Shown here one piece after another: positions 20,408-38,995 of a stretch of 45,517 nt of DNA. Each line of letters starts with the position of its first letter. Position 1 is the stretch's first letter. Origin of the DNA: an uncultured Ruminococcus sp. (GTDB lineage: Bacteria; Bacillota; Clostridia; Oscillospirales; Acutalibacteraceae); NCBI GenBank assembly GCA_964575985.1, contig CAZNTP010000001.1, forward strand, positions 1-45,517. Reading direction: 5' to 3'. The notes under the pieces are model-generated. The model saw only the letters and a program-made list of their open reading frames with translations, had not been told where the DNA came from and made no database searches. Both the position numbers and the translations under genes were made by a program.

Positions 20408-21349
20408 TCATAAAAATATCGGATTAGTCCATGCCTTTTTACCGTTTTTATCAACAATACTGATTCTCACGTAATCATAGGGTCCTGCCCAATAGTTTGC
20501 GATATCAAACTCAGCGTGGGTTATATTGCCCTCCTCATCCACAGTAACGCGGTTAGGATGCATATCACTATGTAAACGCACACGGGCTACAGGCGAGCAA
20601 TCTATAACGGCCTTACCGTCTTCAACATAAAAATCATAAATTTCGGGGCCGCAGGAAGAATAAAACTCGCCGTTTTCAAGAGCTTTTAATATAGAGTTTA
20701 TATCCTTATCAGCCTTTACCATAACCCAGCCCTTACAAAGCTCTTTATAAGAATGGGCATCGTCTGTTGCTACACCGTACCATATTTTGCCTTGACCTAA
20801 AATTTCATCCCAATAAGCCGCATCACTGTCACAGTCGGCAGAAAGCGCACTGCCGCTGTTCCAGATTTCCATAGCAAAGTTGCCTTTTTGGGTTTCGAAG
20901 TGCTTTGCGCTTGTGCTACTCCACTGAGGATGGCAAAGAATTGTCAGGTTTTTCTTTTCATGAATTTTATCAAGCCATGGCTGATACTCTTTTGAATTAG
21001 GTTTGAAGCCCCAATCAAACTTCTGGTCGTGACAGAATCCGTTACCGTCCTCCTTAGCAGGACCGATACAAACCGTGTGGAAGCAACGGAAACCGTGGCC
21101 TTTTATAAGGTCGTTACCGTATTCCATACCGGGTATTACGAGCACCTCGGTTTCGGGAGCATAAGCTTCCATAGTATAAATCTGATGGTCGGTAATTGCC
21201 ATAAAATCATAACCCTGACCTTTGGCATAAACTATAACCTCTTCGGGTGTGAGCTTACCGTCAGAACGGGTAGTATGGCAATGAAGACCGCCTTTTAGAA
21301 ATTTTTTGTCTTTATTTATAAAAGCCTGCTGTCTTTTCAAGGAAATCAA
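20408..21349 (-). CDS. PHP-domain metal-dependent phosphoesterase
   Basis: 313-aa ORF. PHP signature GGLHCHTTRSDGKLTPEEVIVYAKGQGYDFMAITDH, plus later His/Asp clusters (ILCHPQW, ATDDAH). The start codon is TTG (rc of 21347-21349), directly after an in-frame TAG. The SD is weak. Confidence 0.75.
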   Translation of the reverse strand: MISLKRQQAFINKDKKFLKGGLHCHTTRSDGKLTPEEVIVYAKGQGYDFMAITDHQIYTMEAYAPETEVLVIPGMEYGNDLIKGHGFRCFHTVCIGPAKEDGNGFCHDQKFDWGFKPNSKEYQPWLDKIHEKKNLTILCHPQWSSTSAKHFETQKGNFAMEIWNSGSALSADCDSDAAYWDEILGQGKIWYGVATDDAHSYKELCKGWVMVKADKDINSILKALENGEFYSSCGPEIYDFYVEDGKAVIDCSPVARVRLHSDMHPNRVTVDEEGNITHAEFDIANYWAGPYDYVRISIVDKNGKKAWTNPIFL

Positions 21350-21366
21350 CCCCTAGTGAGATAGAA

Positions 21367-22734: not shown

Positions 22735-22781
22735 TCTTTACACCCACTTTTAAAACTAATTCCTATAGCAAATTATTTCTT

Positions 22782-23954
22782 CTAATACGGCATTACGGCA
22801 TCTTCGCCGGGACCTAGGTTATATTTGCGGCATACACTGCGGTTTACCGAAAATACATCAATACAGGTTTCCCTTTCGGTACCCTCGGTACGTTCCTTCA
22901 TTTGCACCCACGGAAGTTCCTTATTGGCTGCGGGACCGCCCCAGCCGCCCCAGGCATTTTCACAGCCCGTTGCCACCTGCCATAAATCAATATCCTCACT
23001 GTAATGAACAAGCTCGGCATGCTGATGCCCAAAATTGTATAAAACAATTTTTCCGTTTTTAATACCGCTAAAATCGGCATTTACAGCGATTTCCTTACCG
23101 TTCATATCGGTATATATAAAATCATATTTTCCGCGGGACTGGAACGCTTTAAATACTTTTCTTAAATTTTCACCGTTTTTGCAGTTATCGCTTGTATCAT
23201 TTTCAATTCCCATATGGGATAAAATTATGTAATCCCAACCGTCATCAGCCCCCAAAGCCACATTACAAAGCCAATCAAGCTGTTCAAAGGTATACCAGAA
23301 TCTTGGAAGTCTGTTTGTAAGCTCGGTAACAGTTCCGTTCTCATCAAAAGGCTTTCTCATATCCATTGTATCCAGTACAATAATACGGGTCTTTTTATTT
23401 TCTAAATCAAAATAAAAATATTTCGAATAAGGGTAATTCTTGTCGTGAACTCTTTTTTCACTAAAGGGATAAAGGTCCATAACCTTTTTAGACCAATCCA
23501 TATCGCTTAAAAGCCATTCACATCTAAGCTCGGAATAGTTTGGATTAAGTGTCTGAAAGCCGTTATCATCATGATTGCCAAATGCCAAAATTACAGGCTT
23601 TTGACTATTTTGAAGAGGCTTAAATGCGCGGTTAAGAGTATCCAAAACCGCCTGTTTGCCTCTTACGTTATAAGCATTAAGCGCATCGCCCGCAAAGGCT
23701 ATAAAATCAATATTTTCATTATTATTGGCAAAGCTTACCGCCTCTTCAAGATGGGACTGAAGCATAGAAATTCGTTTTTCAACCTTTTCCTCGGCTTCGA
23801 ATACGGTAAGAGAACCGTCCTCAGCTTTGCGCAAATATTCGTCTATATGGCAATCTGCAAATACAAGATAATTAACAGAATTCTTGCCGTTTTCATTAAT
23901 TTCTTTACCGATTAAATCGAATTTTTCTTTTATCTTATATGCCATTTTATTCAC
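22782..23954 (-). CDS. Calcineurin-like metallophosphoesterase
   Basis: 390-aa ORF with the ordered motifs FADCHID, FAGDALN, FGNHDD, ILSHMG and FGHQHAE. Confidence 0.8.
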   Translation of the reverse strand: MNKMAYKIKEKFDLIGKEINENGKNSVNYLVFADCHIDEYLRKAEDGSLTVFEAEEKVEKRISMLQSHLEEAVSFANNNENIDFIAFAGDALNAYNVRGKQAVLDTLNRAFKPLQNSQKPVILAFGNHDDNGFQTLNPNYSELRCEWLLSDMDWSKKVMDLYPFSEKRVHDKNYPYSKYFYFDLENKKTRIIVLDTMDMRKPFDENGTVTELTNRLPRFWYTFEQLDWLCNVALGADDGWDYIILSHMGIENDTSDNCKNGENLRKVFKAFQSRGKYDFIYTDMNGKEIAVNADFSGIKNGKIVLYNFGHQHAELVHYSEDIDLWQVATGCENAWGGWGGPAANKELPWVQMKERTEGTERETCIDVFSVNRSVCRKYNLGPGEDAVMPY

Positions 23955-23960
23955 TCCCGA

Positions 23961-25172
23961 TTATTCACTTATAAACTTAGTCCAACCCTTGATTTTAAAC
24001 ACACAAAGAGCCGTAGCAAGCAATGCTATTATGCACCAGCTTATAAGCACCGCATTCCAACCCATACCGTCTGCTAATGCAGCAAAACCGTAGGACGATA
24101 CCGACGCACCTACATAGGTAAAGGCATTAAGTATTCCCGAAAAAGTAGAAACCATACCGTATTTTGAAAAATTCTTAGGGATAAGACCAATTAGCATATG
24201 GTTAACACCGTGCATACAGCCCGAAATCATAGCCGCCGAAACTATTGTAACAATAGCAGGAACCTTAAGTCCCAGTCCCATAGGCACAGTAGCTATAAAA
24301 GCTATACCGAACATAATGGATGCCGTTTTTAATTCATTTTTAATTCTATGATAAATTGTGTTTGCAGTGATTACACTTACCATACTCAAAACGGGCAATA
24401 CCGCTGTGCTTAAAACAGACGAGGACTCGCTGAGCCCGAACTTTTCATTCACAAGTGACGGAAGCCAGGTTTGGATACCGTCCCTTAAAATGCCCTGCAG
24501 TGCGATAATTATAAATATAGGAATAAGTCCCGCCAAGGAAATAAGACCCCAAGCAGAAATAGTTTTCTGACTTTGAGTTTTAGCCGTTGCCTCTGCTTTA
24601 CCCATTGGTATATTTCTTGTGGCATAGCCCCAGACAAGCATCATAATTATACCAAAAACCGCCATACATCTGAAAACATTTCGCCAAACCGTGACTTCCA
24701 ATATAAAAGGAACAAAAAGATATACAAATATTGTTCCTACAGATGCGGAAAGGCTTACAGCGGTTATTGCATCGGAATATTTTTCTGTTCCAACCTGTTC
24801 TGAAACAAAACGTGCGAGTGGCGGCCAAAGCATTGCCTGACACACACCGTTAATACACCAAAGAACAGTAATCAGCTTCATACTTGAACAGAATGAAACT
24901 AAAATATTAACGAGAATTGTTCCAAGCATTGCAGTGCTTATCATTTTAACGGGGGATATTTTATCCCCTATAAAGCCACAGATAACCTGTCCCACACCGT
25001 ATGTAATAAAGCTGCCCGTAACTGCTGCAGATGCCATTGTATTGGTTATTTTAAGGTCGGATACTATTGCTACCAAGGAAGCCGAATAATCAAGCCGCAT
25101 AGCATAGCTGAAAAAATAAACCAAAAAGCCAAGCGCCACTACTGTTTTATATGAAAGTGTTTTATTTGCCAT
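23961..25172 (-). CDS. MFS transporter
   Basis: 403-aa ORF with about 12 hydrophobic segments arranged 6+6 around a central charged loop (GKAEATAKTQSQK). Substrate is not assignable by eye. Confidence 0.8.
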   Translation of the reverse strand: MANKTLSYKTVVALGFLVYFFSYAMRLDYSASLVAIVSDLKITNTMASAAVTGSFITYGVGQVICGFIGDKISPVKMISTAMLGTILVNILVSFCSSMKLITVLWCINGVCQAMLWPPLARFVSEQVGTEKYSDAITAVSLSASVGTIFVYLFVPFILEVTVWRNVFRCMAVFGIIMMLVWGYATRNIPMGKAEATAKTQSQKTISAWGLISLAGLIPIFIIIALQGILRDGIQTWLPSLVNEKFGLSESSSVLSTAVLPVLSMVSVITANTIYHRIKNELKTASIMFGIAFIATVPMGLGLKVPAIVTIVSAAMISGCMHGVNHMLIGLIPKNFSKYGMVSTFSGILNAFTYVGASVSSYGFAALADGMGWNAVLISWCIIALLATALCVFKIKGWTKFISE

Positions 25173-25190
25173 TTTAAAGCTATCCCTTTG

Positions 25191-25976
25191 CTAAATATAT
25201 TTGTAAGGTGTACCTATAAAGCCCACCTGACTGAAATCCTCAAAATTATGACGCACAATATAGTCTATATATGAGGTTATCATCTGAGCGGTTAAAATAT
25301 ATCCTGCCGCATTCATATGCCCGCCCACAAAAAATTTCTTTTTAAACTCACTGTCATATTTAGGGCTATGGGTTCTAAGGTCAATAACATAGGTGTTGTC
25401 AAATAACTCTGCCATTTCTTTAAGAAGCCTTGCATGATTATCACCGTCAAGATTATCTATTCCGTTAGGTAGGGTTACAAGGAAAAACTTTGCATCAGGC
25501 TGAATAGTTTTAAGGCGCTGAATAATTCTTGCATAATAGCCTGTAAATGTAGGCTTATTGTTTTCGGGATTTTCTAAATCTATGTCCGAAACCTCGCCTA
25601 ATTCTACCTGTTTTGTGTACATATCATTTACACCCAAGGCCAGAATATAAGCCTGACATTTCTTTTCGTCGGTCCAGACACCGCAAGCGTCAGCAAAGCT
25701 TTCCATAAACCATTTTGCCGACATTCCGCCACGGGAAAAATTATAAACCTTTATGCCCGCGTTTCTTGCCATATACTGTCCCCAGGAATAATCATAAAAA
25801 TCGTGATAACCGTAATTGCCGTCCTTATCGCGCGATTCGTGCTCGCCCGAAGAAAGACTGTCCCCTATGCAACCGATAGTTCTGAAAATACGCGCATAAC
25901 CGCCGTCGTATACAATTCGGTCTAACGGTTTTTCATCCTCACTATATAAAAGCTTTTCTAAATCCATTATAAACAC
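25191..25976 (-). CDS. SGNH/GDSL-family hydrolase (esterase), cytoplasmic
   Basis: 261-aa ORF. Block I IGCIGDSLSSG, block II FSRGGMSA, block III LGVNDM, block V GGHMNAAGY. The start abuts the stop of the upstream gene (25976/25977). Confidence 0.8.
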   Translation of the reverse strand: MFIMDLEKLLYSEDEKPLDRIVYDGGYARIFRTIGCIGDSLSSGEHESRDKDGNYGYHDFYDYSWGQYMARNAGIKVYNFSRGGMSAKWFMESFADACGVWTDEKKCQAYILALGVNDMYTKQVELGEVSDIDLENPENNKPTFTGYYARIIQRLKTIQPDAKFFLVTLPNGIDNLDGDNHARLLKEMAELFDNTYVIDLRTHSPKYDSEFKKKFFVGGHMNAAGYILTAQMITSYIDYIVRHNFEDFSQVGFIGTPYKYI

Positions 25977-27038
25977 CTACTCTTTAAGTATACAACCTAT
26001 ATTTCCCTCAATTATGCAGTTGGTATTATTTTCTTCTATAAGATTGTCAATAAGCGCACCGTTGTGCATTGCATTTTCCTTAACTATTGTATTCTCGCAA
26101 TTTTTAATAATCAGGCCGTAATCGGGGCTTACGGGAAGTGTCCCGCCATCGCCTGCGCCCACCTTCATAGTGTTACCCACAAGAACACAGCCTGTGCAAC
26201 CGTCCATAATTACGTGCGAGCTCTTTAAAGGGTCGGTATGGGGTTTATCCACATAACAACCGCCACGTCTGAAAATATTACCCGTAATAGTGGCAAGGTT
26301 AGGACCAACGCCATCCTTACCTAACTCTAAAGCCGGACCGAATGTGCGGTCAAAGAAATTACCTGTAATATTGAAACTGTCTCCCCTCGGGAATATAAAT
26401 CCGCCCTTTTTATTCCATTCAACACGGTTACCCGTGGCTGTAATAGCGGCAACATATCCACTTACGGTAATACCACCACTGCCATTATTAGCAAACCAGT
26501 TATCTGTAAGAAAAGCATCCCATCCACTGAAATTAAGTCCCGCGCCGCCATTGGTAATAATAAGGCATCGCCTTACAGAGAAACACCAGATATGGTCAAA
26601 ATGCAGACCGTCTCCCGAGAAAAGCGATATTCTGCAATCGTCTATATTAGGTGTATCCTCTTGACCGCCGCCGTTTGCCACGGGCCACTGGAGTCTTATT
26701 CCGTGAATATTCTTTCCAAGCTTTTTGCCATTAAAAGACATACCGCTTATCTTACAACCAAATGCTCCGCTTATATCAAGCAGACACTCAGCATTTTCAT
26801 TTGTCAGAATAAAAGCAGAAGCACCGTCATTACGGTAGGTCCAGGAGGAACAACCCTCCAAGGAAACACCCTCACCGCGAAGCTTAAGGTCTCCTTTAAC
26901 ATTATACCTGCCGGGCGGAACTACTATTTTTCCCATACAGTCACGTGCGGCATCCATAGCCTTTTGTATGGCTTCGGTACAATCGGCAACACCGTCACCT
27001 ATTGCGCCGAATTCGGTAATGTCAAATACATTTTTCAT
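25977..27038 (-). CDS. Right-handed parallel beta-helix protein (pectate-lyase-3 / GH28-GH55-like fold), no signal peptide
   Basis: The ORF track extends to 27224, but that stretch overlaps the upstream gene. The ATG at 27036-27038 (MKNVFDITEFGAIGDGVADCTEAIQKAMDAA, a typical N-terminus for this family) has GGTGGGGA upstream and leaves a 25-nt gap. Repetitive G-x-x-I/V-x-N beta-helix rungs follow. Confidence 0.7.
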   Translation of the reverse strand: MKNVFDITEFGAIGDGVADCTEAIQKAMDAARDCMGKIVVPPGRYNVKGDLKLRGEGVSLEGCSSWTYRNDGASAFILTNENAECLLDISGAFGCKISGMSFNGKKLGKNIHGIRLQWPVANGGGQEDTPNIDDCRISLFSGDGLHFDHIWCFSVRRCLIITNGGAGLNFSGWDAFLTDNWFANNGSGGITVSGYVAAITATGNRVEWNKKGGFIFPRGDSFNITGNFFDRTFGPALELGKDGVGPNLATITGNIFRRGGCYVDKPHTDPLKSSHVIMDGCTGCVLVGNTMKVGAGDGGTLPVSPDYGLIIKNCENTIVKENAMHNGALIDNLIEENNTNCIIEGNIGCILKE

Positions 27039-27063
27039 TGTTATCCCCACCGTTCCGATTAAC

Positions 27064-27969
27064 TTACTCTTCAAAACAATTATACTGTGTAAGTATAAAT
27101 TTACCAATATCATAAAGTATAGCTTCAAATCTTTTTCTGAATTCCACAGGCAGCTGCAAGCAACGTGTATCACATTTAAATTTACGACGCCTGAATACTC
27201 CGTAAGGCACGTTATCGGACTCAAAGGTAAAATAACCGTTATAGCCTATATCTATTAATCCGTGCATTACCGAATCTATATTGGTAATACCCATAAACGG
27301 CATTATATGATGGTCATCATTACCCATATTATCCTGAATATGAAGTGCCAAAACATCCTTGCCTAAAATTTTTAAGGCCTCGTGTTGAGGTAATTCCTGT
27401 AAATTTCCGTGACCTACATCCCAACAACCTTTAAGAAGCGGGTGATTAATATAATCTATCAATGATTTTTGGTCTTCAGCAGAGTCTACCCAATAACAAC
27501 CCGGAACACACATTTTATTGAAATTTTCAGTAAGAATGGTTATTCCTGATTTTTCAGCAACTTTAAGTAAATCCTCATAAAAAATCTTGTTTTTATAAAA
27601 GGTTTCTTCCTTACTCAAACCGGTTTGGTAACCGGAGTGAACCACGATATTAGGTATACCCAAATAGGCCGCCGCTTCTATGCTTCGCTTAGTATCGAGA
27701 ATAAATTGCTCATACTCACCATCCATAACCAATGGTCTGCCCATTGGTGAATGAGCCTGAACAAAGCTAACCCCTAGCTTTTGGGCAAAATCCTTTAGTT
27801 CATTGCCATACGCTTTCCAATCGTCGCTATAAAAGCCTGTACGGGTTCTGCAATCTAACCCAAAAGAATAATCTATGTATTTAAAACCCGCTTCTCTTAT
27901 GGCGGCAATACTTTCTTTTGCATTAAAACCGTATGCCGCGAAATCACCTGTGGTTGTTGCCAATTTCAT
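27064..27969 (-). CDS. Sugar phosphate isomerase/epimerase (xylose-isomerase-like TIM barrel)
   Basis: 301-aa ORF with the family pattern: AGFKYIDYSF, VQAHSP, IVVHSG, ILTENF, WDVGHGN. Confidence 0.7.
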   Translation of the reverse strand: MKLATTTGDFAAYGFNAKESIAAIREAGFKYIDYSFGLDCRTRTGFYSDDWKAYGNELKDFAQKLGVSFVQAHSPMGRPLVMDGEYEQFILDTKRSIEAAAYLGIPNIVVHSGYQTGLSKEETFYKNKIFYEDLLKVAEKSGITILTENFNKMCVPGCYWVDSAEDQKSLIDYINHPLLKGCWDVGHGNLQELPQHEALKILGKDVLALHIQDNMGNDDHHIMPFMGITNIDSVMHGLIDIGYNGYFTFESDNVPYGVFRRRKFKCDTRCLQLPVEFRKRFEAILYDIGKFILTQYNCFEE

Positions 27970-28000: not shown

Positions 28001-28987
28001 TTATCCTGTAATACCAACGCGGTCGATACTTTCAATAAACCAGCGCTGTAAAATCATATAAACTATAAGCATAGGTGTTACAAAAAGCACACAGCCAGCC
28101 ATCTGGAATGCCATTGTTTCGGGAGTTTCGGGGTTCATATAATAGCCCTTGGTCGAAAGCGCTGTGGGCAACAAATCAAGCTTCATAGCAAGCGGATAAT
28201 CATCGTTAAGATACATTGAGCAAAGCTGATAATCATTCCAATGCCATATAAGTGAGAACACAACTACTGTTATAATTACAACACCCGAAGACGGCAATGC
28301 TATACGAAGGAAGGTTTTAACAGGGCCTGCGCCGTCAATCCAAGCCGCCTCTTCAAGCTCTTTGGGGAAGCCTGAAAAGAACTGTATATATATGAATATT
28401 ATTACACCTGACCTTAATCCCATTGAGAATATAGAGGGCAAATAAAATGCCGCCGCGCTACCAAGAATATTAGGTCTTAAATCAATGCCTGTCAGTTTAT
28501 CGAACAACCCTAAGATACCTAAAACATCCATTTTAGAGTAATTTGCCATTCGGGGAATAAGCACCATCATATCTGGAACCAGAATTGTAAGGAATAATAT
28601 ACCGAGCATTATACCCTTACCCTTAAACTTAAAGCGCGCAAAGCCGTAGGCGGTAAAGGCGCAAGCCGCAACCTCAATAAGAGCGCTTATAATTTCATAA
28701 ATAAAGGTTGATTTAAGCGCTTTTCCGTAGTCGAGAAGCTCAATTGCTATGTCATAATTGAACTTGGGACTTATAGCCTCGGGAATCCAGACTCTAGTTG
28801 AGTTAAAGAAACCGTTACGGCTTACAAGAGAGGTCACCACCATATAAAGCAGGGGATAAATAATAACAAAGCCTATAGATATAAGAAGTATCATTCTGAA
28901 AGCAAACATTGCCGTGTTTGGCAAATTGCGCTTTAGGGTCTCTTTATTAAGGTTTAAGGAGATTTTTTTGTTGTTAAATAAGCTCAT
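28001..28987 (-). CDS. Carbohydrate ABC transporter permease (pair 2, MalG-like)
   Basis: 328-aa ORF with 6 TM segments and the EAA loop EEAAWIDGAGPVKTFLRIALP. Confidence 0.85.
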   Translation of the reverse strand: MSLFNNKKISLNLNKETLKRNLPNTAMFAFRMILLISIGFVIIYPLLYMVVTSLVSRNGFFNSTRVWIPEAISPKFNYDIAIELLDYGKALKSTFIYEIISALIEVAACAFTAYGFARFKFKGKGIMLGILFLTILVPDMMVLIPRMANYSKMDVLGILGLFDKLTGIDLRPNILGSAAAFYLPSIFSMGLRSGVIIFIYIQFFSGFPKELEEAAWIDGAGPVKTFLRIALPSSGVVIITVVVFSLIWHWNDYQLCSMYLNDDYPLAMKLDLLPTALSTKGYYMNPETPETMAFQMAGCVLFVTPMLIVYMILQRWFIESIDRVGITG

Positions 28988-28999
28988 ATTATCCCCTCC

Positions 29000-29896
29000 T
29001 TAATTCCAACGGTTTTGAAGGAATTTTTTGTAAACAAATACAATCAATCCCATTATTGTGCCAACTACTAAGAAATAGAACCACATCATAGCAGAGGTTT
29101 CGTCATAAACAGCGGCACGCATTAAACTGTAAACCTTTACAACCAAAACATTATTATTGCTTACAAACAGTTCTACCATTGTATAAACCATAACAAGCAA
29201 TGTAACATTTGAAAGCATTGGGAAGGTTATAAACCAAAATTCCTCCCACTTAGTAGCGCCCTCTACCTTACTTGCCTCATAAAGCGTTGAAGGTATAGAC
29301 TGAAGACCCGCTAAGAAAAGTACGGTCTGAATACCGCTGTTCCATATAAGGTCAAATATATTGCTTATTATCTTTTGAACATATTCAGCCACTTGAGCCG
29401 GTAGGTCAAGTATAGATATAATATCCTGAACACTGAACATTCCGCCCGATACCGATTCTGAAACGGATGAGCTTGTCATATCGTCGCCCGCCATACCGGA
29501 AATCAGCTCTATTACTACACCCGAAGCTATAATTACGGGCATAAAATAGAGGGCTCTAAAAAACAGTCTGCCTCTGAATTTCTGGTTAAGCAAAAGTGCC
29601 AGTACCATACTGAGCAATACAATAATCGGCAAGGAATAAACAAAATTTGTAACCGATTTTGTAAGCCAGTTAATATAATCGGTATGCTCGGCAACTATGT
29701 ACTTATAGTTTTTAATACCTACCCAAAGAGTTTGAACACCGTCTTCTGTGATAGACATTTGAGAAAAAGAATAAATTATTGACTGAATAACCGGTATTGC
29801 AAAGAAAAGCACTACACCCACTACCCAGGATGAAATAAAGAACCATCCGTAGCGGGCCTTAATCTCTTCAATACCTCTGTATTTTTTCTTTTTCAT
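29000..29896 (-). CDS. Carbohydrate ABC transporter permease (pair 2, MalF-like) with an unusual S-rich periplasmic insert
   Basis: 298-aa ORF with the EAA loop [21 protein letters not shown]. Its ATG overlaps the stop of the upstream gene (TAATG at 29894-29898). Confidence 0.85.
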
Positions 29897-32142
29897 TACT
29901 TCGCCCCCTCTATAAGAAAGCTTTTTGCAGGAATTTTGCCTGCAGCGTCTGATATTTCATTATCAGAATAATTCACATAAACAGTAACTCCGTTAGAGAA
30001 TTCTGTTTTACGAATACCCGATTCTAAAATAGTGTGATTTACAATTTCACTGTCTGCTATTTTTTCATAGTAGTCGGAAAGTGACTTGTAATTTTCAATT
30101 ACTGTATCCTTTATATCGCTATATAGACTATTGTAAAAAATAGGGGAAACACTGTCAAGCAGTACGGTATCATAATCTGCAATCAGTGTATAGCTTAAAC
30201 CGCAACCGCTCTCAACCGCACGCAAAAGCTGTAAATCGGGTTCGGCTACCAGATTTACGCTCTCAGCCGAAAGCGAGGTTCTGCCTCTGAATACCATCTG
30301 GTAAAGCGGAATATCTTCATCAAAAATAAATGCTTTTGATGAAACGGTAGGCGCACCTATAACCGCATCTGATTTTGCCGCCGCAAAGGCATTGGCATCT
30401 TCAGTAATAATTTTTTTGTTTTCGGCTTTAATACTGTCTATTATACCGATAACCTGATTTGCAAAGCCTTCCTTTGCATAATATTCTACCGATTCCTTAT
30501 TACTGTAATCGGAATATACCATATTTGAAAGTGAGGTAAGACCCACGCCCGAAAGCTCTAGTTTTTCGGCCGCATTGAGAACGTCCTCTCCGACATCTGT
30601 AAAGCGGTCGCGGGCTAAAAGCGATAATGCGTTTTCGGTTTCTCTGCCCAAAACTGCGATATCAAACCTATAATCCTTTGCAGGCTTACGGTTAGCTCTT
30701 ATAGCCGCATCAAAATATGATTTGTAGCCGTTAGCAGACTGGTTAAAGCTAACAGTATTAAAATCAAAATAAAAATCTGTGCCGTTATTCTTGCAAAGCT
30801 CCATTACCTGCCCGAGTTCTTTTGCTTTGCCAAGCTTAGAATCTATTTTGAAATTACCCGCAAGCTTATTAGAGTCAATTCCGTTTTCAGTAAAGCCTTT
30901 AAGGGTTACGTTTGAAACATCAAGACCTTTTTCCTTAAGCTCATTAAGAATATCGCCTACCTGCGATATTGTAGTTGTTGGGAAAAGTGTCTTATAAGGA
31001 ATACCCAAAAATGACTTTACGGTCATAGTGCCGCCAATAAATGTGAGGTCAAGCTTTGAAGAAGCGGCCGCCTTGGCTTCGCCCATAGTTTTATCAAGAT
31101 AATTACGGTAGGTCTCTGCCATAGCACTATAGTTAGCCTTTTCATTCTCTAAGGGATAGAAACCGATTGTAAGCGGAGTTTCTATCATATTATCGGCATA
31201 AACCGAGCCCTCATAATATCTGTTGTTATAAAGTTCTTTTATGTTTGCGGTATATCCGCGAAGCTGATATGTGGTATAAACCGAGCTATAGCCAATAGAG
31301 GTTGAGCCCACTGTCATTTTAAGAAGAGAAGACTCTGCCCCCTGCTCTATTATGCCGGCTACAGCGGTTGTTGCCGTTTTTACACCGAAAAGCGGTAATC
31401 TGATTGCTTTTTCGGTGGTAATTTTGTCCCACACCTCTTTGGAGTAGTCGATGCCGTAAACCTCTGCCTCATAAGCTTCACCGGGTTGTGAAATTTCTTT
31501 AGCATATACAAGTGCTCCCGAGCCTGAGGGATAAACCAAATAGCCGTCTGTTGCGCTATTTTCTACCGAACAGAAGAAGGGCGCCACCGCCACAGAAATG
31601 AGCATATTCTCATTTTCCTCTATTTCCTTAGGGTTAACGGTAATTGCCACACTGTCCTCTCTGAGAGAGTATTCAACCGGCACCATAATCTGTGCATCAT
31701 CAAAATAATACTTAATTTTGATGCCGTTTTCTATCTCCTCAGCAACGGTGCGGCCTCCCTTTACAGCCGCGTTATAAGAAATAAGCTGTGAGGTTATATT
31801 TTTTTCAACATCAAGGTAGTCAATAATTAATACAGACTCAACCTGTGGATGCCTTTTAATAGGCATACCGAACTCATCAAACTGCTGTTCACCCGAAGCT
31901 ATAGGATTAGTACCGTAAACTGCACCTGTTTTCAAATTTGTAAGGGTTATGCCCATTGTAGTTTCATTAAGCTCCAGCTTAAAATTTTCATTTTCTGCTA
32001 TAACGGTGTCAGAAACCGATGCCGATTCCGTCTTATCATCGAAGGAATTCTTTTTTAGCACGGTCTTGCCCGAGCAACCGCAAAGCATTGTTAAAACCAA
32101 TGTAAATATACAAACTGACGAAATAAATCTTTGCCAATTCAA
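29896..32142 (-). CDS. Large lipoprotein of unknown function (748 aa)
   Basis: TTG start (rc of 32140-32142) 8 nt after AGGAGG. Signal peptide plus lipobox (LTMLCGCSG). I could find no catalytic or binding motif. It is translationally coupled to the downstream permease. Confidence 0.75.
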
Positions 32143-32158
32143 AAGTAATTCCTCCTAT

Positions 32159-34270
32159 CTATGATATTAATTCAAGAAAAACGGTTACGGCGAAGCCGCC
32201 TATTTGCTGAATAAGCATTCCTACCAGAATCATAAGGAACACTAAAACCGCCAACCAAGCAATACTTAAAACACTTGTGCCGATAAGTCTCGACATACTG
32301 AAATCGTGTATTTTAATAAGACCGATTATAAGAAGTATTGCGGTAAATCCAATTGCCACCGCATCAAAACCGTCAAGGAACATTGCCTCATTAGGTAATA
32401 ATACATTAGTGAAAATAAGTCTTGCAAATCTTTCTATTATTATAGGTAACAAGCTGTAGCAGGTTACAATGCAAATCTCTCTGAGGGTTCCCTTACCCTG
32501 CATAAGAGTACATATCATCCAGTTGCTGAGTATCCACAAAACAACAAGACCTGCACTACGAACAAGCACCCAAATTGAATTGAAGTTTGCGGGGTCGTAC
32601 TGTGTGAATAAAAATCCGCCGCAAAGCACCTGAATTACGGCTGTTACATAAAACAAGGTAATCAGCACACCGCAAATTATAAGTGAGCCCTGCTTCTTTT
32701 CCTTAATCTCCTCAAAGGTTAAAACAGGATGAATAAGGGTTCTGAACATCAGTCTTACCTGTTTTGATTTTATAAGCTTTATTTGCTTTTTCTTTATAAA
32801 TACCGACAAACCGATAACTGCCGCTATTATAACTACAACCGACAGGAATATCAGCCAAAAATATTCTTTAAGCAAATTCTGGCGATAAAATTCAAAGGCT
32901 ATCTGATAGGTTTCTCTGTCATAACCTATTTTTGCATATTCCATCGCGGCTTTGTAATCACATTCTGTAAGATACGCTCTTGCAATACCGCTGTATGCAG
33001 GCTGGAAATTACGGTCAAGGGCTATAACCTCGTTCCAACCCTCTCGCGCTTCGAGATATTTACCCTCAAGGGTAATATCTATAAGCCCCATAACCTTTTT
33101 GCCGAAATCGGTGATTTTAAAAACTGTAACTGTATTTTTTAGCTTATCTGTAACAAGTACATCTGTGCCGTTAAGGGCTATTGCATTTGCGGCAGAAAAT
33201 GTACCGTCCTGCTGACCGCTACCGAGACCGCCGCCAAATGCAGTAAGCATTCTGCAGGACCTGTCATAAAGGAAAACTCTGCCAAACTGAGATTCAATAC
33301 AGTAAACATAACCCGCATCGTTAACAACAAGACCAACGATATCCTGCTCTATTTGCTTACCGTTATTAAATGTGGTATTAAAGGCATCGTCAACAAAGTT
33401 TGATTCTTCCGAGTTTAAAATATTACTGCCATTACCGGGATTTAGCTTTTTTATCTGTCCCACTCTATCGTAGGTATCTGTTTTACCGGTAGCTGTATAA
33501 ATAAAGTCATTTTTATCAATAACTATGTCTACAAACGAATAAGGCAATGTTCTTGCGCTTGCGCTCTTTTTGGCATTGTTAGGGAACATACGCTCAATAA
33601 TATTTTTAATAGCCGATGCTATTCCCGTTGTAACATCATTAGCACCGTAAAAGCCTGTAAAGCTTTTATCGGGCGCATAAAGAAGCGCACCGTAATACGA
33701 ACCGTCACTCAAAACATAAAGATAGCCGTGTGAATCCATAACAGCCTTTAGGGGCTTAAAGACAAACTCCTCAGGAATAAGCGAAGATTCGGGCAAAAGA
33801 TATACATCTGTAACAGTTCCGTCAGGCTTTATTCTTAAAACCTGAGCCTGCTCGGTATTGCAGACAAAAATTGTTCCGTCTGTATAAACAAACAGACTTT
33901 GTGCGCCTGCAAAGTTATAAACTACACCGTCACTGCCCACAAGCTCGGTAATTTCAGCCAATAATTTATAGTTGTTATCAAGAACTATTATTCTGGATTC
34001 GTTATCAAGAATATAAATTCTGTCATTCCCTGTAACAACATCATTAATCTGTGTGAGGGGCTTAATCCCTAAAGATAACGCATCGATAACAAAATCGGTT
34101 GTGTACATAGGTCGGCTGTAAACAGCCTTTCTTTCCTCACCTATATCCTCCCAATAAGTATAGCTCTCAAAAGGAATCTGATTTGAAGCGGCATTAACAC
34201 CTAAAATGCAGGAGAATAAACATATGAAGGCTAACAGTACCGCAATCAAACGAATTGCTCTTTTAAACAT
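32159..34270 (-). CDS. Membrane protein: signal peptide, NHL-like beta-propeller, TPR-like segment, TM helix, C-terminal Yip1-like multi-pass domain
   Basis: 703-aa ORF with RBS AAGGGGAG. It has repeated blade-like segments (RIYILDNESRIIVLD, GTIFVCNTEQAQVLRI, GYLYVLSDGSYYG, DFIYTATG, GYVYCIESQFGRVFLYD, DVLVTDKLKNTVTVF) and a TPR-like stretch (YSGIARAYLTECDYKAAMEYAKIG). One TM helix is at about aa 468-490, with about 5 more in the last 190 aa. Confidence 0.7.
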   Translation of the reverse strand: MFKRAIRLIAVLLAFICLFSCILGVNAASNQIPFESYTYWEDIGEERKAVYSRPMYTTDFVIDALSLGIKPLTQINDVVTGNDRIYILDNESRIIVLDNNYKLLAEITELVGSDGVVYNFAGAQSLFVYTDGTIFVCNTEQAQVLRIKPDGTVTDVYLLPESSLIPEEFVFKPLKAVMDSHGYLYVLSDGSYYGALLYAPDKSFTGFYGANDVTTGIASAIKNIIERMFPNNAKKSASARTLPYSFVDIVIDKNDFIYTATGKTDTYDRVGQIKKLNPGNGSNILNSEESNFVDDAFNTTFNNGKQIEQDIVGLVVNDAGYVYCIESQFGRVFLYDRSCRMLTAFGGGLGSGQQDGTFSAANAIALNGTDVLVTDKLKNTVTVFKITDFGKKVMGLIDITLEGKYLEAREGWNEVIALDRNFQPAYSGIARAYLTECDYKAAMEYAKIGYDRETYQIAFEFYRQNLLKEYFWLIFLSVVVIIAAVIGLSVFIKKKQIKLIKSKQVRLMFRTLIHPVLTFEEIKEKKQGSLIICGVLITLFYVTAVIQVLCGGFLFTQYDPANFNSIWVLVRSAGLVVLWILSNWMICTLMQGKGTLREICIVTCYSLLPIIIERFARLIFTNVLLPNEAMFLDGFDAVAIGFTAILLIIGLIKIHDFSMSRLIGTSVLSIAWLAVLVFLMILVGMLIQQIGGFAVTVFLELIS

Positions 34271-34283
34271 ACATTTCTCCCCT

Positions 34284-35189
34284 TTACATATCTTTAATGC
34301 CTGCGCTGCTCATAGCCTCTACAACATTGCTCTGAGATATTAAATAAACTATAACAGGCGGGATCATCATAATAGTAGTTATAGCCATAGCGCTACCTGT
34401 TCTTGCAATACCTCCGGCGGTAATCTGGGTTACAATCTGGGGAAGAGTTTTAAGCTCTTCATTGAAAATTGTACCGTTAGGAATTGCCGCCCAGATATCA
34501 CGGAAAGCAAAAAGGGTAACCGTAAGCCACGCAGGTTTTATAATAGGCATTATAATCTGCCAGAAAATTCTGATGTAACCTGCACCGTCTATTTTTGCGG
34601 CTTCCATCAAAGCATCAGGCACATAGCCCTCAATATACTGCTTTATAAGGAATACACCCAATGTACCTGCCAATTGCGGTAAAATATATACCCAATATGT
34701 ATCCACTAACCGAAGCTTTGAGAATATAAGGTACTGCGGAACCGAAAGCACATAAGAGTTAAACATAAGCGCAAACTGAATTATAAGGAATATAAAGCCC
34801 TTGCACTTATATGTACCCTTAGCAAGCGAAAATGCCGCCATTGCCGAAAAAACAATATTAAGCACCGATGTAACAGCTGTTATAAACAAGCTGTTGAAAA
34901 CATAACGCGAAAGCGGCACCGAAAGGCTTGAAAGCAAGGTCGGTAATACTACATAGTTTTCGGTGGTGGGTCTGCGCACTGTGAAAAGTGTCGGAGGGAA
35001 AATAAGTAATTCATCAATAGGCTTAAACGATGTAACCACCGCATAAATAAGGGGTAGCATACTGAAAAGACCTGTTGCGATTATAAAAGCAAAGCAAACA
35101 AAATTACCAAATTTTGAACGGGTAAAGCGGTTTGCATTAGGCTTTTTAGGATTAGCTAATCTGTATTTATAATAAAGCTTCTTAAACAT
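34284..35189 (-). CDS. Carbohydrate ABC transporter permease (pair 1, LplC/MalG-like)
   Basis: 301-aa ORF with 6 TM segments and the EAA loop MEAAKIDGAGYIRIFWQIIMP. Confidence 0.85.
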   Translation of the reverse strand: MFKKLYYKYRLANPKKPNANRFTRSKFGNFVCFAFIIATGLFSMLPLIYAVVTSFKPIDELLIFPPTLFTVRRPTTENYVVLPTLLSSLSVPLSRYVFNSLFITAVTSVLNIVFSAMAAFSLAKGTYKCKGFIFLIIQFALMFNSYVLSVPQYLIFSKLRLVDTYWVYILPQLAGTLGVFLIKQYIEGYVPDALMEAAKIDGAGYIRIFWQIIMPIIKPAWLTVTLFAFRDIWAAIPNGTIFNEELKTLPQIVTQITAGGIARTGSAMAITTIMMIPPVIVYLISQSNVVEAMSSAGIKDM

Positions 35190-35198
35190 CTATACCAC

Positions 35199-36110
35199 CT
35201 ACTTACTTACCATATTCAAAACTTTGCCGATAATATATCTTGTTGTTGCCATTAAAGCAAACAAAACAACCGCTATTGAAGAAGCATAGCCCAGCTCATA
35301 TCTGACCGTTGCCATATCCGACATATGCGTAACAATGGTATCAACCGTGTGCTGAACACTGGGGTAGCCCGCAAGCTCTACAGCAACAGCGCTTATAGAG
35401 AAGCTGCTTTGAATCTGCATAACCGCACTGAAAAGCAGCATGTGTGACATTGAAGGCAATGTAATATATCTTAGCTCTTGCCAACGGCTACGAATACCGT
35501 CAATAGCGCCGGCTTCATATAAATCGCGGTTTACATTCTGAAGACCCGAAATATTCGAAAGGAAGGAAACACCGAGACTTTGCCATAGTTGTACAATTAT
35601 AACTATAGTAAAGAGATAATCGGGGCTTTTAAGCCAGGTAATAGGCTCGGTAATAATACCCACCGATAAAAGCAGGCTGTTAATATAACCGTAGCTGTCA
35701 CCCGAAAAGGCAATTTTCCAAATGAAATATGCGTTACCTACAAGGGACGGCGCATAAAACATAAACGAGAAAAGGGTTCTAAGTCCTGTGGAAAACTCAT
35801 TTACAAGCCAAGCAAAAAGGAAGGCCAGCAAAAAGCCCGCAGGACCTACAACAACCGCAAGCGCTACGGTATTCTTTAATACCGTCATAAACACATCGTC
35901 TTCAACAAACATACGCATATAGTTTCCAATGTTTATGAATTTAGGCATAGAAAGCATATCATATGAGGTGAAGCTTAAAACAATAGAAGAAAGTATCGGT
36001 AAAACCGTAAATACAAGGAAAAAGGTGAAAAACGGAGCTAACAGCAATAGCATAGGTAGCTGTTCATATTTTCCGCTTGTACTTTTTTTAATAACTTTTG
36101 TATTTTTCAT
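35199..36110 (-). CDS. Carbohydrate ABC transporter permease (pair 1, LplB/MalF-like)
   Basis: 303-aa ORF with the EAA loop YEAGAIDGIRSRWQELRYITLP. Confidence 0.85.
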   Translation of the reverse strand: MKNTKVIKKSTSGKYEQLPMLLLLAPFFTFFLVFTVLPILSSIVLSFTSYDMLSMPKFINIGNYMRMFVEDDVFMTVLKNTVALAVVVGPAGFLLAFLFAWLVNEFSTGLRTLFSFMFYAPSLVGNAYFIWKIAFSGDSYGYINSLLLSVGIITEPITWLKSPDYLFTIVIIVQLWQSLGVSFLSNISGLQNVNRDLYEAGAIDGIRSRWQELRYITLPSMSHMLLFSAVMQIQSSFSISAVAVELAGYPSVQHTVDTIVTHMSDMATVRYELGYASSIAVVLFALMATTRYIIGKVLNMVSK

Positions 36111-36124
36111 GTAACCTTCCTCCT

Positions 36125-38995
36125 TTACTTATACTCTTCAATCTTACGATTGATTTCAGCATCGGCCACCTGACTCCACTTTGTTATGGCGTCCTTTGCG
36201 TTAACATTATCGTTAAGAACAGACCAATACGCCTGATCTATCGCGCGGCTCAAATAATAACTGCCTGGAAGCTCGGGCACTTCCTTTACCTTACTCCACT
36301 GGTTAAGGATAATTTCCAAATCATTTTTATCCCAGCTTAAGTTTTTAAGTGCCTCTACATTGGCTGTGGTCTGACGTCCAAGCATACCCAAAAGCGACTC
36401 TACATTGTTTGAATATCTGGTCTGGGTATCGGCAGATGTCCACCATTTAAGGAATCGCCATGCCTCTTTTTGATTGGGGGATTTTTTAAGTATTGCGCAT
36501 CCTGTACCTGCACCTGCAACAGAATCGTTACCGCCCACAGTTCCTGGTACGCAAGCCACAGACCAACGTCCCTTGATTTCGGGCGCCGCGCTGTAAAGTG
36601 TCAAATATGTAGAATAGGGCGCAATACCAAGCGGCATAACACCTACACGAAGTCTGTTATAGAAATCTGCCTCCTTTTGATACTCATAATCAGTATAAAG
36701 GGTGGTCCAGAAATCAAATACAGAAATTTCGTCAATACCTGTGAGTTGGGTTGCGTTTAACTCCTCATTATAAATTGAAAGTCCGTTCTGTCCCATAAGT
36801 GTGGGGAAAAGATTAAGGCTTCCTATACCTGCATTTACAGTGGTTGCCGCAGTAATCATTGTATAAGGAATATAAACATTCATATTATTTCGCTGAATAA
36901 TAGCAGATGTATAAAGGAATTCATCCCACGTAGTAGGCACCGTAAGCCCTAAGTTTTCAAGAATATCGCTACGGTAGAACATCATATAGAAGCTCTGGGT
37001 ATCGGGTAAAGCATAAAGCTCGCCGTCATAACAGTACGGAACCTCGGCATCAGGCTGAAAACGCTCTAATATTTCATCAATATCATCAAACTCGGATAAA
37101 TCTGTAAGGGCACCGCGTATTCCCAGGTTTACAGGCTCAGTTCTTGTTAAATGAAGAGCCATATCGGGAAAATTACCCGAAAGCAAACCGTTTATAAGAG
37201 AAGCATTTGTTATCTGCACCTTAACGGGTATTCCTGTTTCGGCAGTAAAAGAATCTCTTATCAAAGTGTCAAGGGCTGTTGCCTGGTCTCTACCCCAGTT
37301 TACCCAAAGCTTAAGACTGGTTTTATTCTCCTCGGCAGTTTTGGATTCAATAATATAATCGTCTACAAAAGAGATAAAAAGTCTTTCTGCTCCATATAGC
37401 AATTTCTTTAAGAAAGAAGCGTCCTTGTTTTCAAACTCTGCACCCACGGGGGCTAACTGAATAGTATCGATATAAAGCGGCATCTTCTTCATATCATAAA
37501 GCCAAGAGCTAAGAGAAGAATAATTTGTATAGTAGTCAGTTACATACTGATGTGCCATATAAGGACTGTCGCACATTATTTTAAGCACGCGGCTCATATT
37601 GTTTAATGCCGCAATATACTGACTGCTTCTTTTACCCGTGAACTTTTCGAGATCCTTTGCCAGAGTGATTAACTGCTCTCTACATTCCTCAAAGGTATCG
37701 TTAAGATTGGGGATTTGCCTGAATAATTCATAGTCAAGATTTGCATCGGGTGTAGCGCCCGTAATCTTAACAATTTCAATATACTTATTTCCAAGCTTAT
37801 CAACTATATCGGATAAACGGTAGAAATATTCTGACATATCACCCATTGTAACCTCAAGGGTAAGTGTGTGCTCGCCCTTATCAAGCCAAATGTAATAAGG
37901 CTCTTCACCGTTTTTCCATTCGAAGAAGCTCCACTTAGCACAGTAAGGGAATCTTATTCCCTTAGCTTCTGTGAAAGGAGTTTTTCCGTCTATTTTAAGC
38001 CAACGCCAGCTCTCTGCATTGATAACATCGCTTTGACGGTATCTGAAACCGAGCTTGTAATAACCTGCTTCCTTAGCAGTGAAATCCCATTGCAAGAACT
38101 GACCTGCCTCCTGCCAAGAGGTGCCGCCTATGTAATTCAGTTTTGTGAGCATTACATCATTGGGTGTCACACCGGCATCCGAATTATCAGATTTAGGGAT
38201 AAGACTTGATGCAGATTTAAGGCTTGCATTCTCTCCCTGAATAACTATGGTTTTTACATCTTTTTCACTGATTTTGTAATCCTTTGAAACCTCTTCATAG
38301 CTCTCTGTTTTTTCGGGTGCAGAAAGCTCTAAGCAAGCTACCGCTACCGCTTGCTCGGGATTATTTATAGAAACAGTATGGGTGCCGGCGCTGAAATAAA
38401 AGGCATACGGCTCTACCGTTACACCCGTTGTGCTTCGGGCCAAAGTTTTTTGGTATTCTTTAACCTCGGCTTGTTCAGGGGTGAGCTCATTACCTAAATT
38501 ATCAACCCTTATTTTATCAGAAGCATTTTCCCACAAACGCGGAAAGCTTAAAAGCTCGGCCTCGCCAAAAGGAGTTACGCCATCTATCTTAAAAGCGAAT
38601 ACATAATCCACACCGCTCTCAACAGCGCTGTATTCAAGCTTAATATTATAATAGGAATCTGTAGGCACGGTAACTGTCCACTCGGCAGCACCCGTTCCCT
38701 TTTGCCATAAAACCGCGGTTTTACCGTTTGCTTCTTTAATTACAGCATCACCCGAAACCACAGCATCAGCGGCATTTAAGCTCATACTGTTTTCCGCAGC
38801 AGAAAACTCATCAAATTTTGATATGTATTCATTATAGTCCGTAGCTGTAACGGCAGTTTGTGATTGTACTATAGGAGTCGATTCTTCTACAGTATCTGCA
38901 CTGACTGTAATACCGTTTAAACATAAATTAGAACTCGCGGCCAATATCACAGTCAAACCAAGTGATACAAATCTTTTTGAAAACCCTCTGTTCAT
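36125..38995 (-). CDS. Secreted fusion protein (~956 aa): two beta-sandwich (CBM-like) domains, helical linker, C-terminal family-1 solute-binding domain
   Basis: The ORF is open to a GTG at 39064, which has no SD. The ATG at 38993-38995 (or the TTG 3 nt upstream) follows AAAGGAG and starts signal peptide MNRGFSKRFVSLGLTVILAASSNLCLNGITVSA. Two similar segments are present (WTVTVPTDSYYNIKLEYS...FKIDGVTPF and WDFTAKEAGYYKLGFRYRQ...LKIDGKTPF). The C-terminal ~400 aa is SBP-like (LKLWVNWGRDQ..., YALPDTQSF, KEAWRFLKWW). Confidence 0.8.
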   Translation of the reverse strand: MNRGFSKRFVSLGLTVILAASSNLCLNGITVSADTVEESTPIVQSQTAVTATDYNEYISKFDEFSAAENSMSLNAADAVVSGDAVIKEANGKTAVLWQKGTGAAEWTVTVPTDSYYNIKLEYSAVESGVDYVFAFKIDGVTPFGEAELLSFPRLWENASDKIRVDNLGNELTPEQAEVKEYQKTLARSTTGVTVEPYAFYFSAGTHTVSINNPEQAVAVACLELSAPEKTESYEEVSKDYKISEKDVKTIVIQGENASLKSASSLIPKSDNSDAGVTPNDVMLTKLNYIGGTSWQEAGQFLQWDFTAKEAGYYKLGFRYRQSDVINAESWRWLKIDGKTPFTEAKGIRFPYCAKWSFFEWKNGEEPYYIWLDKGEHTLTLEVTMGDMSEYFYRLSDIVDKLGNKYIEIVKITGATPDANLDYELFRQIPNLNDTFEECREQLITLAKDLEKFTGKRSSQYIAALNNMSRVLKIMCDSPYMAHQYVTDYYTNYSSLSSWLYDMKKMPLYIDTIQLAPVGAEFENKDASFLKKLLYGAERLFISFVDDYIIESKTAEENKTSLKLWVNWGRDQATALDTLIRDSFTAETGIPVKVQITNASLINGLLSGNFPDMALHLTRTEPVNLGIRGALTDLSEFDDIDEILERFQPDAEVPYCYDGELYALPDTQSFYMMFYRSDILENLGLTVPTTWDEFLYTSAIIQRNNMNVYIPYTMITAATTVNAGIGSLNLFPTLMGQNGLSIYNEELNATQLTGIDEISVFDFWTTLYTDYEYQKEADFYNRLRVGVMPLGIAPYSTYLTLYSAAPEIKGRWSVACVPGTVGGNDSVAGAGTGCAILKKSPNQKEAWRFLKWWTSADTQTRYSNNVESLLGMLGRQTTANVEALKNLSWDKNDLEIILNQWSKVKEVPELPGSYYLSRAIDQAYWSVLNDNVNAKDAITKWSQVADAEINRKIEEYK

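Follow-up and report, generated by a model that had tools for sequence, protein, structure and literature searches.

The window analysed here is a 45,517-nucleotide stretch (contig CAZNTP010000001.1, assembly GCA_964575985.1) of the genome of an uncultured Ruminococcus sp. It contains a gene for a 703-residue (aa) membrane protein in which an extracellular NHL-type beta-propeller and TPR helices are joined to a polytopic Yip1 domain. The gene, here called the propeller-Yip1 gene, lies inside an ATP-binding cassette (ABC) transporter operon. The initial annotation gave its coordinates correctly, but the strand has to be corrected to minus: the plus strand of 32159-34270 is closed by many stops, and the single open reading frame (ORF) runs on the minus strand. 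The gene and the parts of its product are the following (AF2, AlphaFold2 model; TM, transmembrane; pLDDT, predicted local distance difference test).

32159..34270, minus strand: whole gene, stop codon included, for the NHL-propeller/TPR/Yip1 membrane protein of 703 aa (ORF list, translation, Pfam Yip1 match, AF2)
34277..34282, minus strand: Shine-Dalgarno sequence GGGGAG, 6 nt 5' of the ATG (direct sequence reading)
34190..34270, minus strand: type-I signal peptide, residues 1-27, with cleavage between GVNA and AS (hydropathy, conservation, pLDDT drop at residues 25-31)
33113..34162, minus strand: extracellular six-bladed NHL-type beta-propeller, residues 37-386 (AF2 strands, Foldseek, family profile, conserved NHL Asp/Gly positions)
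32867..33112, minus strand: two TPR motifs and a stalk helix, residues 387-468 (AF2 helices, family profile, domains of homologues)
32798..32866, minus strand: TM1, residues 469-491, running from outside to inside (hydropathy peak of 3.07; within helix 452-495)
32684..32797, minus strand: cytoplasmic segment, residues 492-529, with a basic stretch and two short helices (sequence, conservation, split point)
32162..32683, minus strand: five-helix Yip1 membrane bundle, residues 530-703 (Pfam, AF2 helices, conservation)

The gene is tightly packed between its neighbours. It begins 13 nt after the stop codon (34284-34286) of the upstream permease, A2, while the next gene, which encodes a DUF5696 lipoprotein, starts 16 nt past its own stop and is preceded by GGAGG.

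The domain layout that the initial annotation had read by hand is borne out throughout. The protein starts with a cleavable signal peptide, whose A27 is kept in at least 90% of 136 homologues. The alignment of these homologues was also the input for an AF2 model with a mean pLDDT of 91.8 and a predicted template modelling score (pTM) of 0.84. In the model, strands at residues 37-386 form six blades, mostly with pLDDT above 90 and with a low-confidence helical insert at about 211-243, in agreement with the roughly six blades originally counted. The top 17 Foldseek matches in the PDB are all NHL domains, with TM-scores on the target of up to 0.79; the best matches, which are six-bladed (Thin, TRIM2, TRIM71, Brat; 0.72-0.79), include Thin (6xg7, E 2.4e-13) and TRIM2 (7b2r, TM-score on target 0.79). 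The family profile, compared with PDB sequences, finds proteins ranging from the PknD-derived Pizza designs (E 4e-54) to TRIM NHL domains (1e-29), and the propeller of M. tuberculosis PknD itself (1rwi) at E 2e-22. The canonical NHL Asp and Gly positions are conserved across the homologues. The propeller is followed by TPR-like helices at 388-401, 405-418, 423-435 and 439-448, corresponding to about two TPR motifs, and the family profile matches consensus TPR proteins at query positions 387-441. Taken alone, the window protein has no match to NHL PF01436 at E<=0.01 and stays below the Pfam TPR thresholds; PF01436 scores 63.6 bits in the paralogue on contig C2 of the same genome and is carried by many homologues, in which TPR_19/TPR_11 are also found. 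The NHL and TPR assignments therefore rest on the family profile, paralogues, homologues and fold.

The assignment of the membrane part is more direct. An unbroken 44-residue helix (452-495) comprises the last stalk helix and TM1 and leads straight into a basic stretch, KKKQIKLIKSKQVR, starting at residue 492, just as the initial annotation had described a TM helix followed by a basic cytoplasmic loop. Two short cytoplasmic helices within 503-524 carry the near-invariant H514-P515. Five helices come after the basic loop (530-550, 565-589, 596-621, 626-655 and 659-702), and the suspected likeness of this bundle to Yip1 is confirmed by the Pfam Yip1 profile (PF04893), which aligns from position 2 to position 171 of its 173 with residues 510-680 (nt 32231-32743), at E 1.4e-11 and with a score of 45 bits, where the curated gathering threshold is 28.6. 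A profile scan of the whole genome returned identical coordinates, and in 20 of 20 diverse family members the C-terminal bundle matched Yip1 and nothing else in Pfam. The only other Pfam match of the window protein is a faint, sub-threshold one to the SGL propeller. No PDB chain matches the Yip1-domain profile (the best, at E 0.09, is spurious), and there is no Yip1 structure among the Foldseek matches. The conserved residues of the bundle, polar ones and others, are N564, N583, W584, G592, G594, P609, E628, H655 and E700.

As read from the sequence, Lys and Arg are restricted to the predicted inside loops. The ectodomain should therefore be outside, followed by TM1, an inside loop and a Yip1 bundle that starts inside the cell and ends outside, a predicted topology that fits the positive-inside rule. 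The cytoplasmic parts would then be one 38-residue loop and two very short ones of 3-6 residues. After TM1 we found no domain besides Yip1, and neither a cytoplasmic output domain nor a catalytic signature, using Pfam, NCBIfam and conservation; NCBIfam has no match for this protein or for the DUF5696 protein of the window. Pfam and NCBIfam likewise give no SBP_bac, BPD_transp_1 or ABC_tran match, so the protein is not a core component of a CUT1 importer.

Around the propeller-Yip1 gene there are six others that complete a cassette (SBP, substrate-binding protein). Their order is giant SBP, permeases A1 and A2, propeller-Yip1 gene, DUF5696 lipoprotein, permeases B1 and B2.

36125..38995, minus strand: gene 1, giant secreted SBP of about 956 aa counted from the MNRGFSK start (Pfam)
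35199-36110 and 34284-35189, minus strand: genes 2 and 3, permease pair A, BPD_transp_1 (Pfam, conserved order)
29896..32142, minus strand: gene 5, DUF5696 lipoprotein of 748 aa, directly downstream of the propeller-Yip1 gene (Pfam DUF5696, E 8e-134)
29000-29896 and 28001-28987, minus strand: genes 6 and 7, permease pair B (Pfam, conserved order)

This arrangement is conserved. We located 80 related loci in species-representative genomes with a 20-sequence alignment and placed the components by tblastn. All the hosts are uncultured gut or rumen bacteria, represented by metagenome-assembled genomes of Acutalibacteraceae, Ruminococcaceae, Oscillospiraceae or 'Clostridia'. The full seven-gene order was present in all 57 loci with enough flanking sequence, and each neighbour was present wherever the contig reached it (SBP 63/63, A1 72/72, A2 75/75, DUF5696 70/70, B1 68/68, B2 66/66). 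The homologues are thus anything but randomly distributed with respect to ABC transporter genes, and the suggestion in the initial annotation that the gene sits inside a transporter operon was right. A separately examined homologue, 56% identical, has the same gene order together with a second SBP and a GH16 gene. Approaching the matter from the other side, we found DUF5696 in 109 of the 400 Clostridia genomes sampled, its long form (E<=1e-100) in about 78, or about a fifth. In 28 of the 29 best class-wide DUF5696 loci, a Yip1 domain of this family is encoded directly upstream. In the 29th, an insertion sequence (IS) element lies inside DUF5696, and an intact propeller-Yip1 gene stands just before the break. 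The insertion at this locus (L146, G040:C1, 7332-12729) carries ORFs of 498 and 263 aa.

The cassette also occurs in Caldicellulosiruptor (in full in C. kronotskyensis, and in C. obsidiansis) and in Paenibacillus odorifer. In C. obsidiansis OB47 (locus L138, 6862-9721), permease A2 is split by a 442-aa ORF on the opposite strand. With the locus described above, insertion elements break cassette genes in two cultured or complete genomes. The protein family itself is large: a word-indexed search returned over 856 full-length relatives, about 700 aa long and in many cases with precomputed NHL, TPR_19 and Yip1 domains, and an exhaustive search of 50%-identity representatives yielded 2657 proteins at E<=1e-3, while a limit of E<=1e-30 left 1080. 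Almost all of these are full length, so that the architecture is common to at least 1080 clusters and is no one-off fusion. Among these homologues we saw no fusion of the propeller-Yip1 protein to a permease, an SBP or DUF5696; the longer ones add only NHL repeats. The regulators beside the cassette vary, with AraC at the window, a histidine kinase and an AraC-type response regulator at the copy on contig C4 of the same genome, LacI in C. obsidiansis and AraR/XynR in C. bescii, while the position of the propeller-Yip1 gene between the permease pairs is invariant. The gene is a fixed member of a cassette that is widespread in gut Clostridia, Caldicellulosiruptor and Paenibacillus.

The genome that contains the window is small (1.73 Mb, 84% complete), and it has five Yip1 matches, scoring 46-58 bits, and five full-length DUF5696 genes, always adjacent to each other. 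BLAST showed that these belong to five complete cassettes, the one in the window (28001-38995) and four more on other contigs:

contig C9, 5075-15993: complete cassette
contig C4, 17053-27955: complete cassette
contig C6, 13939-24836: complete cassette
contig C2, 16773-27755: complete cassette

The seven genes of each cassette diverge together. Compared with the window copy, the four other propeller-Yip1 proteins are 42, 32, 25 and 25% identical, the SBPs 44-29% and the pair-A permeases 69-35%. Each of the five cassettes is flanked by lipoprotein SBPs of 445-536 aa and by giant surface proteins of 1400-1900 aa.

One of these paralogues is informative in another respect. In the C2 cassette the gene is split within the region encoding the cytoplasmic loop: a 479-aa ectodomain protein (signal peptide, NHL domain, TPR and TM1) is followed, 2 nt after its gene, by a 206-aa Yip1 protein (56 bits). 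P. odorifer has an otherwise identical cassette with a 4-nt overlap between the two genes. This split arrangement is kept across many strains, where the two products go by the names 'NHL repeat-containing protein' and 'YIP1 family protein' and a 'DUF5696 domain-containing protein' is encoded alongside. The separate Yip1 genes of split forms encode 204-206 aa, and a phylum-level scan found the same two-gene form in several lineages. Since the Yip1 gene is retained although the split ectodomain keeps a TM helix of its own, the Yip1 bundle is more than an anchor. Its conserved polar residues point in the same direction.

Which members of the cassette the propeller-Yip1 protein follows in its evolution was assessed with the seven proteins aligned from 60 non-redundant cassettes, obtained after redundancy removal from 59 filtered related loci, four cassettes of the own genome and that of C. 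kronotskyensis. Mirror-tree correlations of pairwise distances lay at about 0.9 throughout and told nothing before the background had been subtracted. The analysis was therefore based on covariation along the branches of a fixed topology: the tree came from the concatenated alignment, branch lengths were re-estimated for each protein or domain, and residual relative rates were correlated over 106 of 125 branches. Known partners gave rho values of 0.46 (A1-A2), 0.42 (B1-B2) and 0.29 (SBP domain-A2), and cross pairs between the A and B permeases gave -0.06 to 0.19. The propeller covaried with DUF5696 (rho 0.34, p 4e-4), B1 (0.33, p 5e-4) and B2 (0.28), the TPR part with DUF5696 (0.29) and with the N-terminal domains of the SBP (0.28), and the Yip1/TM part with the SBP domain (0.25) and A2 (0.23). 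DUF5696 also covaried with B2 (0.31), but its rate followed most closely that of the beta-rich N-terminal domains of the giant SBP (0.48). The signals of the ectodomain are on a par with those of true partners, though modest in size.

The two extracellular neighbours deserve attention as candidate partners. The AF2 model of the window DUF5696 lipoprotein (pLDDT 90.7, pTM 0.90) predicts a three-domain fold of the glycoside hydrolase family 129 (GH129) type. The best Foldseek matches are GH129 enzymes (ZgGH129, 5opq, E 7e-33; NagBb, 5wzn, TM-score on target 0.74), followed by GH101, GH36 and GH31. The DUF5696 sequence profile has a weak match to 5opq (E 3e-4), made up of three colinear segments; the hidden Markov model (HMM) alignment spans query positions 39-83, 320-451 and 671-744, with the catalytic strands outside. 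Most DUF5696 orthologues have a lipobox. There is also a shorter type of DUF5696-like protein, about 570 aa long (loci L140-L144, in other Clostridia), which lacks a signal peptide, has neither Yip1 nor ABC neighbours and matches only profile positions of about 190-612. These are probably intracellular GH129-like enzymes, and the association with Yip1 is accordingly specific to the extracellular form of DUF5696.

The giant SBP, with its beta-rich N-terminal domains followed by an SBP_bac_1/8 domain, is unusual in a different way: 61 of 62 orthologues of about 950 aa (loci L017-L094) have no lipobox and carry plain type-I signal peptides, and the protein of the window has no lipobox either. The binding protein of a monoderm bacterium is normally lipid-anchored. 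The giant SBP, having no lipid anchor, needs another way of staying at the cell surface. The conventional SBPs nearby, of about 500 aa, are lipoproteins, as is DUF5696, unlike the giant SBP. As for the energy source, the assembly contains one fragment of a MalK/MsmX-type OB-fold ATPase (C106:30-230, at a contig end) and at least 10 CUT1 permease pairs, consistent with a single ATPase shared by the importers.

Expression data on a very likely family member come from C. bescii. Its family member, ACM59329.1, shares a 90%-identity cluster with the C. kronotskyensis protein (those of C. obsidiansis, C. hydrothermalis and C. acetigenus form another), and Caldicellulosiruptor members are named 'NHL repeat containing protein' or 'YIP1 family protein'. 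The xylan degradation locus of C. bescii includes an operon xloEFG-X-GH129-axoFGE-xynFED-xyn10A-xynXB (Rodionov et al. 2021, PMC8579813 supplementary tables), in which X is Athe_0177, annotated as 'NHL repeat-containing protein' and located beside a 'putative GH129' (PMC8579813). The two identifiers are not explicitly cross-referenced, but judging from sequence clustering and gene order, ACM59329.1 is very likely Athe_0177. This gene would then belong to the same protein family and cassette order as the window gene; it differs in that its cassette serves xylan, whereas the window locus has GH16, GH30 and GH36 neighbours, and the two may be paralogous or orthologous. RNA-seq values for Athe_0177, in fragments per kilobase per million (FPKM), are 225 on glucose, 58 on cellobiose, 543 on Avicel, 131 on xylose and 1898 on xylan, and its expression runs parallel to that of the xylan-induced Athe_0174-0180 (PMC8579813). 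On xylan it stands at 1898 FPKM against 405-1666 for the permeases (PMC8579813). Biochemical tests have been reported for the XynR operator that lies upstream of Athe_0174 (PMC12285236). In the published view, the flanking genes encode two separate predicted importers, and X is given no function (PMC8579813). Our literature search found no paper on 'DUF5696' and, for the locus tags Athe_0176-0181, only an unrelated one; in the Caldicellulosiruptor literature neither Yip1 nor NHL was found in the main text, and a paper on maltodextrin transport is silent on the gene. The family is thus large and named in databases ('YIP1 family' or 'NHL repeat-containing') but functionally unstudied.

What, then, might the protein do? 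To our knowledge, only one bacterial Yip1 protein, YknW, has been studied. As cited in later papers, YknW is an accessory subunit that modulates the assembly of the ABC exporter YknXYZ in B. subtilis/B. amyloliquefaciens (Yamada et al. 2012, cited in PMC4887032, PMC4338810). The statement in the initial annotation that bacterial Yip1 homologues are essentially uncharacterised goes too far. Like the window protein, YknW is a polytopic membrane protein of the Yip1 family encoded in an ABC-transporter operon. As far as those papers describe it, it is small and has no propeller/TPR ectodomain, and its association with the transporter was demonstrated biochemically, whereas for the window protein we infer it. 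The eukaryotic Yip1/YIPF proteins share the PF04893 five-helix bundle with a cytoplasmic N-terminus, but they have a sizeable cytosolic N-terminal region, pair with Yif1, reside in the ER/Golgi and are linked to Rab GTPases (PMC6682643, PMC8327215). The window protein, in contrast, comes from a bacterium, has a cytosolic segment of only about 38 residues (492-529) and carries its large domain outside the cell. On the ectodomain side, the closest parallel is PknD (PDB 1rwi), the source of the Pizza designs, in which a six-bladed NHL propeller is held outside the bacterial membrane by a single TM helix; PknD has a cytoplasmic kinase, whereas the window protein has a Yip1 bundle instead and no output domain. 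The known idea on which the system builds is that of a Yip1-type accessory protein of an ABC transporter. Here an extracellular propeller/TPR part is fused to Yip1 within a twin CUT1 importer that comes with a GH129-like lipoprotein.

Being a fixed part of a two-importer sugar-uptake cassette, the propeller-Yip1 protein probably supplies an accessory subunit that the picture of complex-carbohydrate import has lacked. More specifically, we lean, on balance, towards a non-catalytic accessory or scaffold integral-membrane subunit of the twin CUT1 sugar importer cassette. The Yip1 bundle would pack in the membrane beside the ABC permeases, as YknW, the nearest precedent, does with YknXYZ, and the propeller/TPR platform would hold extracellular partners over the translocators. 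The candidates are the DUF5696 lipoprotein and/or the anchor-less giant SBP, the latter perhaps tethered in this way. A captured and trimmed oligosaccharide could then be handed to two importers at one site, both energised by a shared MsmX/MalK-type ATPase encoded elsewhere. Of the three roles raised in the initial annotation, the scaffold or assembly factor would accordingly be the best supported, on indirect grounds, while the glycan-sensing gate finds no support, given the missing output domain and the variable regulators.

Several considerations weigh against an accessory subunit of this kind. What speaks for an association with the transporter, the invariant gene order, the co-expression of the C. 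bescii member and the rate covariation, is indirect as to physical contact with any cassette protein, and many CUT1 importers function without such a protein. The propeller could bind glycan instead of protein. The modest covariation could stem from joint substrate shifts of all extracellular parts; because such shifts would give the same pattern, the rates speak for functional coupling and not for contact. The equation of ACM59329.1 with Athe_0177, very likely as it is, rests on the annotation name, gene order and the 90%-identity cluster, and Rodionov et al. left X outside their functional reconstruction and report nothing on its necessity (PMC8579813). Finally, the partner of YknW, as the citing papers present it, is a MacB-type exporter with a membrane-fusion protein that serves SDP toxin efflux, and thus a transporter of another fold and direction. 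The neighbours of the window gene are type-I CUT1 importer permeases (BPD_transp_1), a giant SBP with an SBP_bac_1/8 domain and a GH129-like lipoprotein, with no MacB-type partner.

A bolder form of the scaffold idea, which we regard as doubtful, is that all seven cassette proteins assemble with the shared ATPase into a single supercomplex at the cell surface, the Gram-positive equivalent of the SusCD 'utilisome' of Bacteroidetes. The propeller-TPR-Yip1 protein would be its hub, with the Yip1 bundle bridging the two translocators and the ectodomain docking the GH129-like lipoprotein and tethering the giant SBP. If true, glycan capture, trimming and dual import would be physically coupled.

Alternatively, the protein might act only transiently, as an assembly or maturation factor (a chaperone or insertase-like helper), and not be a stoichiometric subunit. 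There is some precedent for this, as eukaryotic Yip1 proteins act in membrane trafficking, YknW is described in the citing papers as modulating the assembly of its partner complex, and TPR and propeller domains are typical protein-binding modules. However, a helper of this kind is hard to square with a C. bescii mRNA level equal to or above that of the permeases on xylan, or with the observation that every paralogous cassette has its own co-diverging copy and no shared helper. We therefore consider it unlikely.

We find it improbable, too, that the protein is a glycan sensor or gate, with the propeller binding polysaccharide and the Yip1 bundle relaying the signal to a regulator or opening and closing the importers. 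NHL propellers displayed outside the cell can serve as sensors, as the profile match to PknD recalls, and the gene does belong to a substrate-induced operon. Yet the cytoplasmic side offers little to signal with, as a 38-residue loop and loops of 3-6 residues leave no kinase, helix-turn-helix (HTH) or other output domain, and the adjoining regulators change between loci while the position of the gene between the permease pairs stays constant.

The propeller might itself be an enzyme, such as a lyase, esterase or lactonase, that acts on the glycan and is anchored beside the importers. The faint SMP-30/gluconolactonase (SGL) matches, database names such as 'SMP-30/gluconolactonase/LRE-like' and the presence of virginiamycin B lyase propellers among the Foldseek matches (TM-score on target 0.58-0.63) hint at this. 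The SGL matches are below the Pfam cut-off, however, and it is non-catalytic NHL domains that match best in both fold and profile, at higher TM-scores. The conserved residues of the ectodomain are the repeat-structural Asp, Gly and aromatic positions, and in the homologue alignments we saw no conserved His/Glu/metal set. An anchored enzyme would also leave the retention of a separate Yip1 gene in the split forms unexplained, and we consider it quite improbable. Least credible of all is a hitch-hiker engaged in, for example, cell-envelope or adhesion biology, for although X was given no role in the C. bescii reconstruction and its transport link is indirect, a position that never varies in 57 of 57 loci or between three distant lineages, the presence of five co-diverging copies in one small genome and rates that covary with those of the neighbours all speak against it.

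Gram-positive fibre degraders are thought to import oligosaccharides via simple three-part ABC systems. If the reading preferred here holds, the Yip1-anchored propeller and the GH129-like lipoprotein would be the fourth and fifth fixed parts of a twin importer. What is new here is the link to the C. bescii xylan operon, the five cassettes in one genome, the comparison of fused and split forms, the anchor-less giant SBP and the rate covariation. Anaerocellum (Caldicellulosiruptor) bescii is a model organism of biomass conversion. It is genetically tractable and carries its copy of the gene in a well-studied xylan locus, which opens the role of a bacterial Yip1 protein to direct testing; with a role established in A. 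bescii, the Yip1 fold would have two defined functions in prokaryotes.

The genes downstream of the cassette (window 20408-27969) encode, according to Pfam, proteins without signal peptides: a xylose-isomerase-like TIM barrel, a beta-helix protein, an SGNH esterase, a major facilitator superfamily (MFS) transporter, a calcineurin-like phosphoesterase, a GH30 enzyme and a PHP phosphoesterase. Such a mix, with its two phosphoesterases, is unusual for a glycan locus. The ORF of the beta-helix (pectate-lyase-like) protein, at 25977-27224 on the minus strand, has a TTG start and shares about 160 nt with the upstream TIM-barrel gene (27064-27969); the true start of this protein is probably an internal Met (…MKNVFDITEFGAIGDG…).

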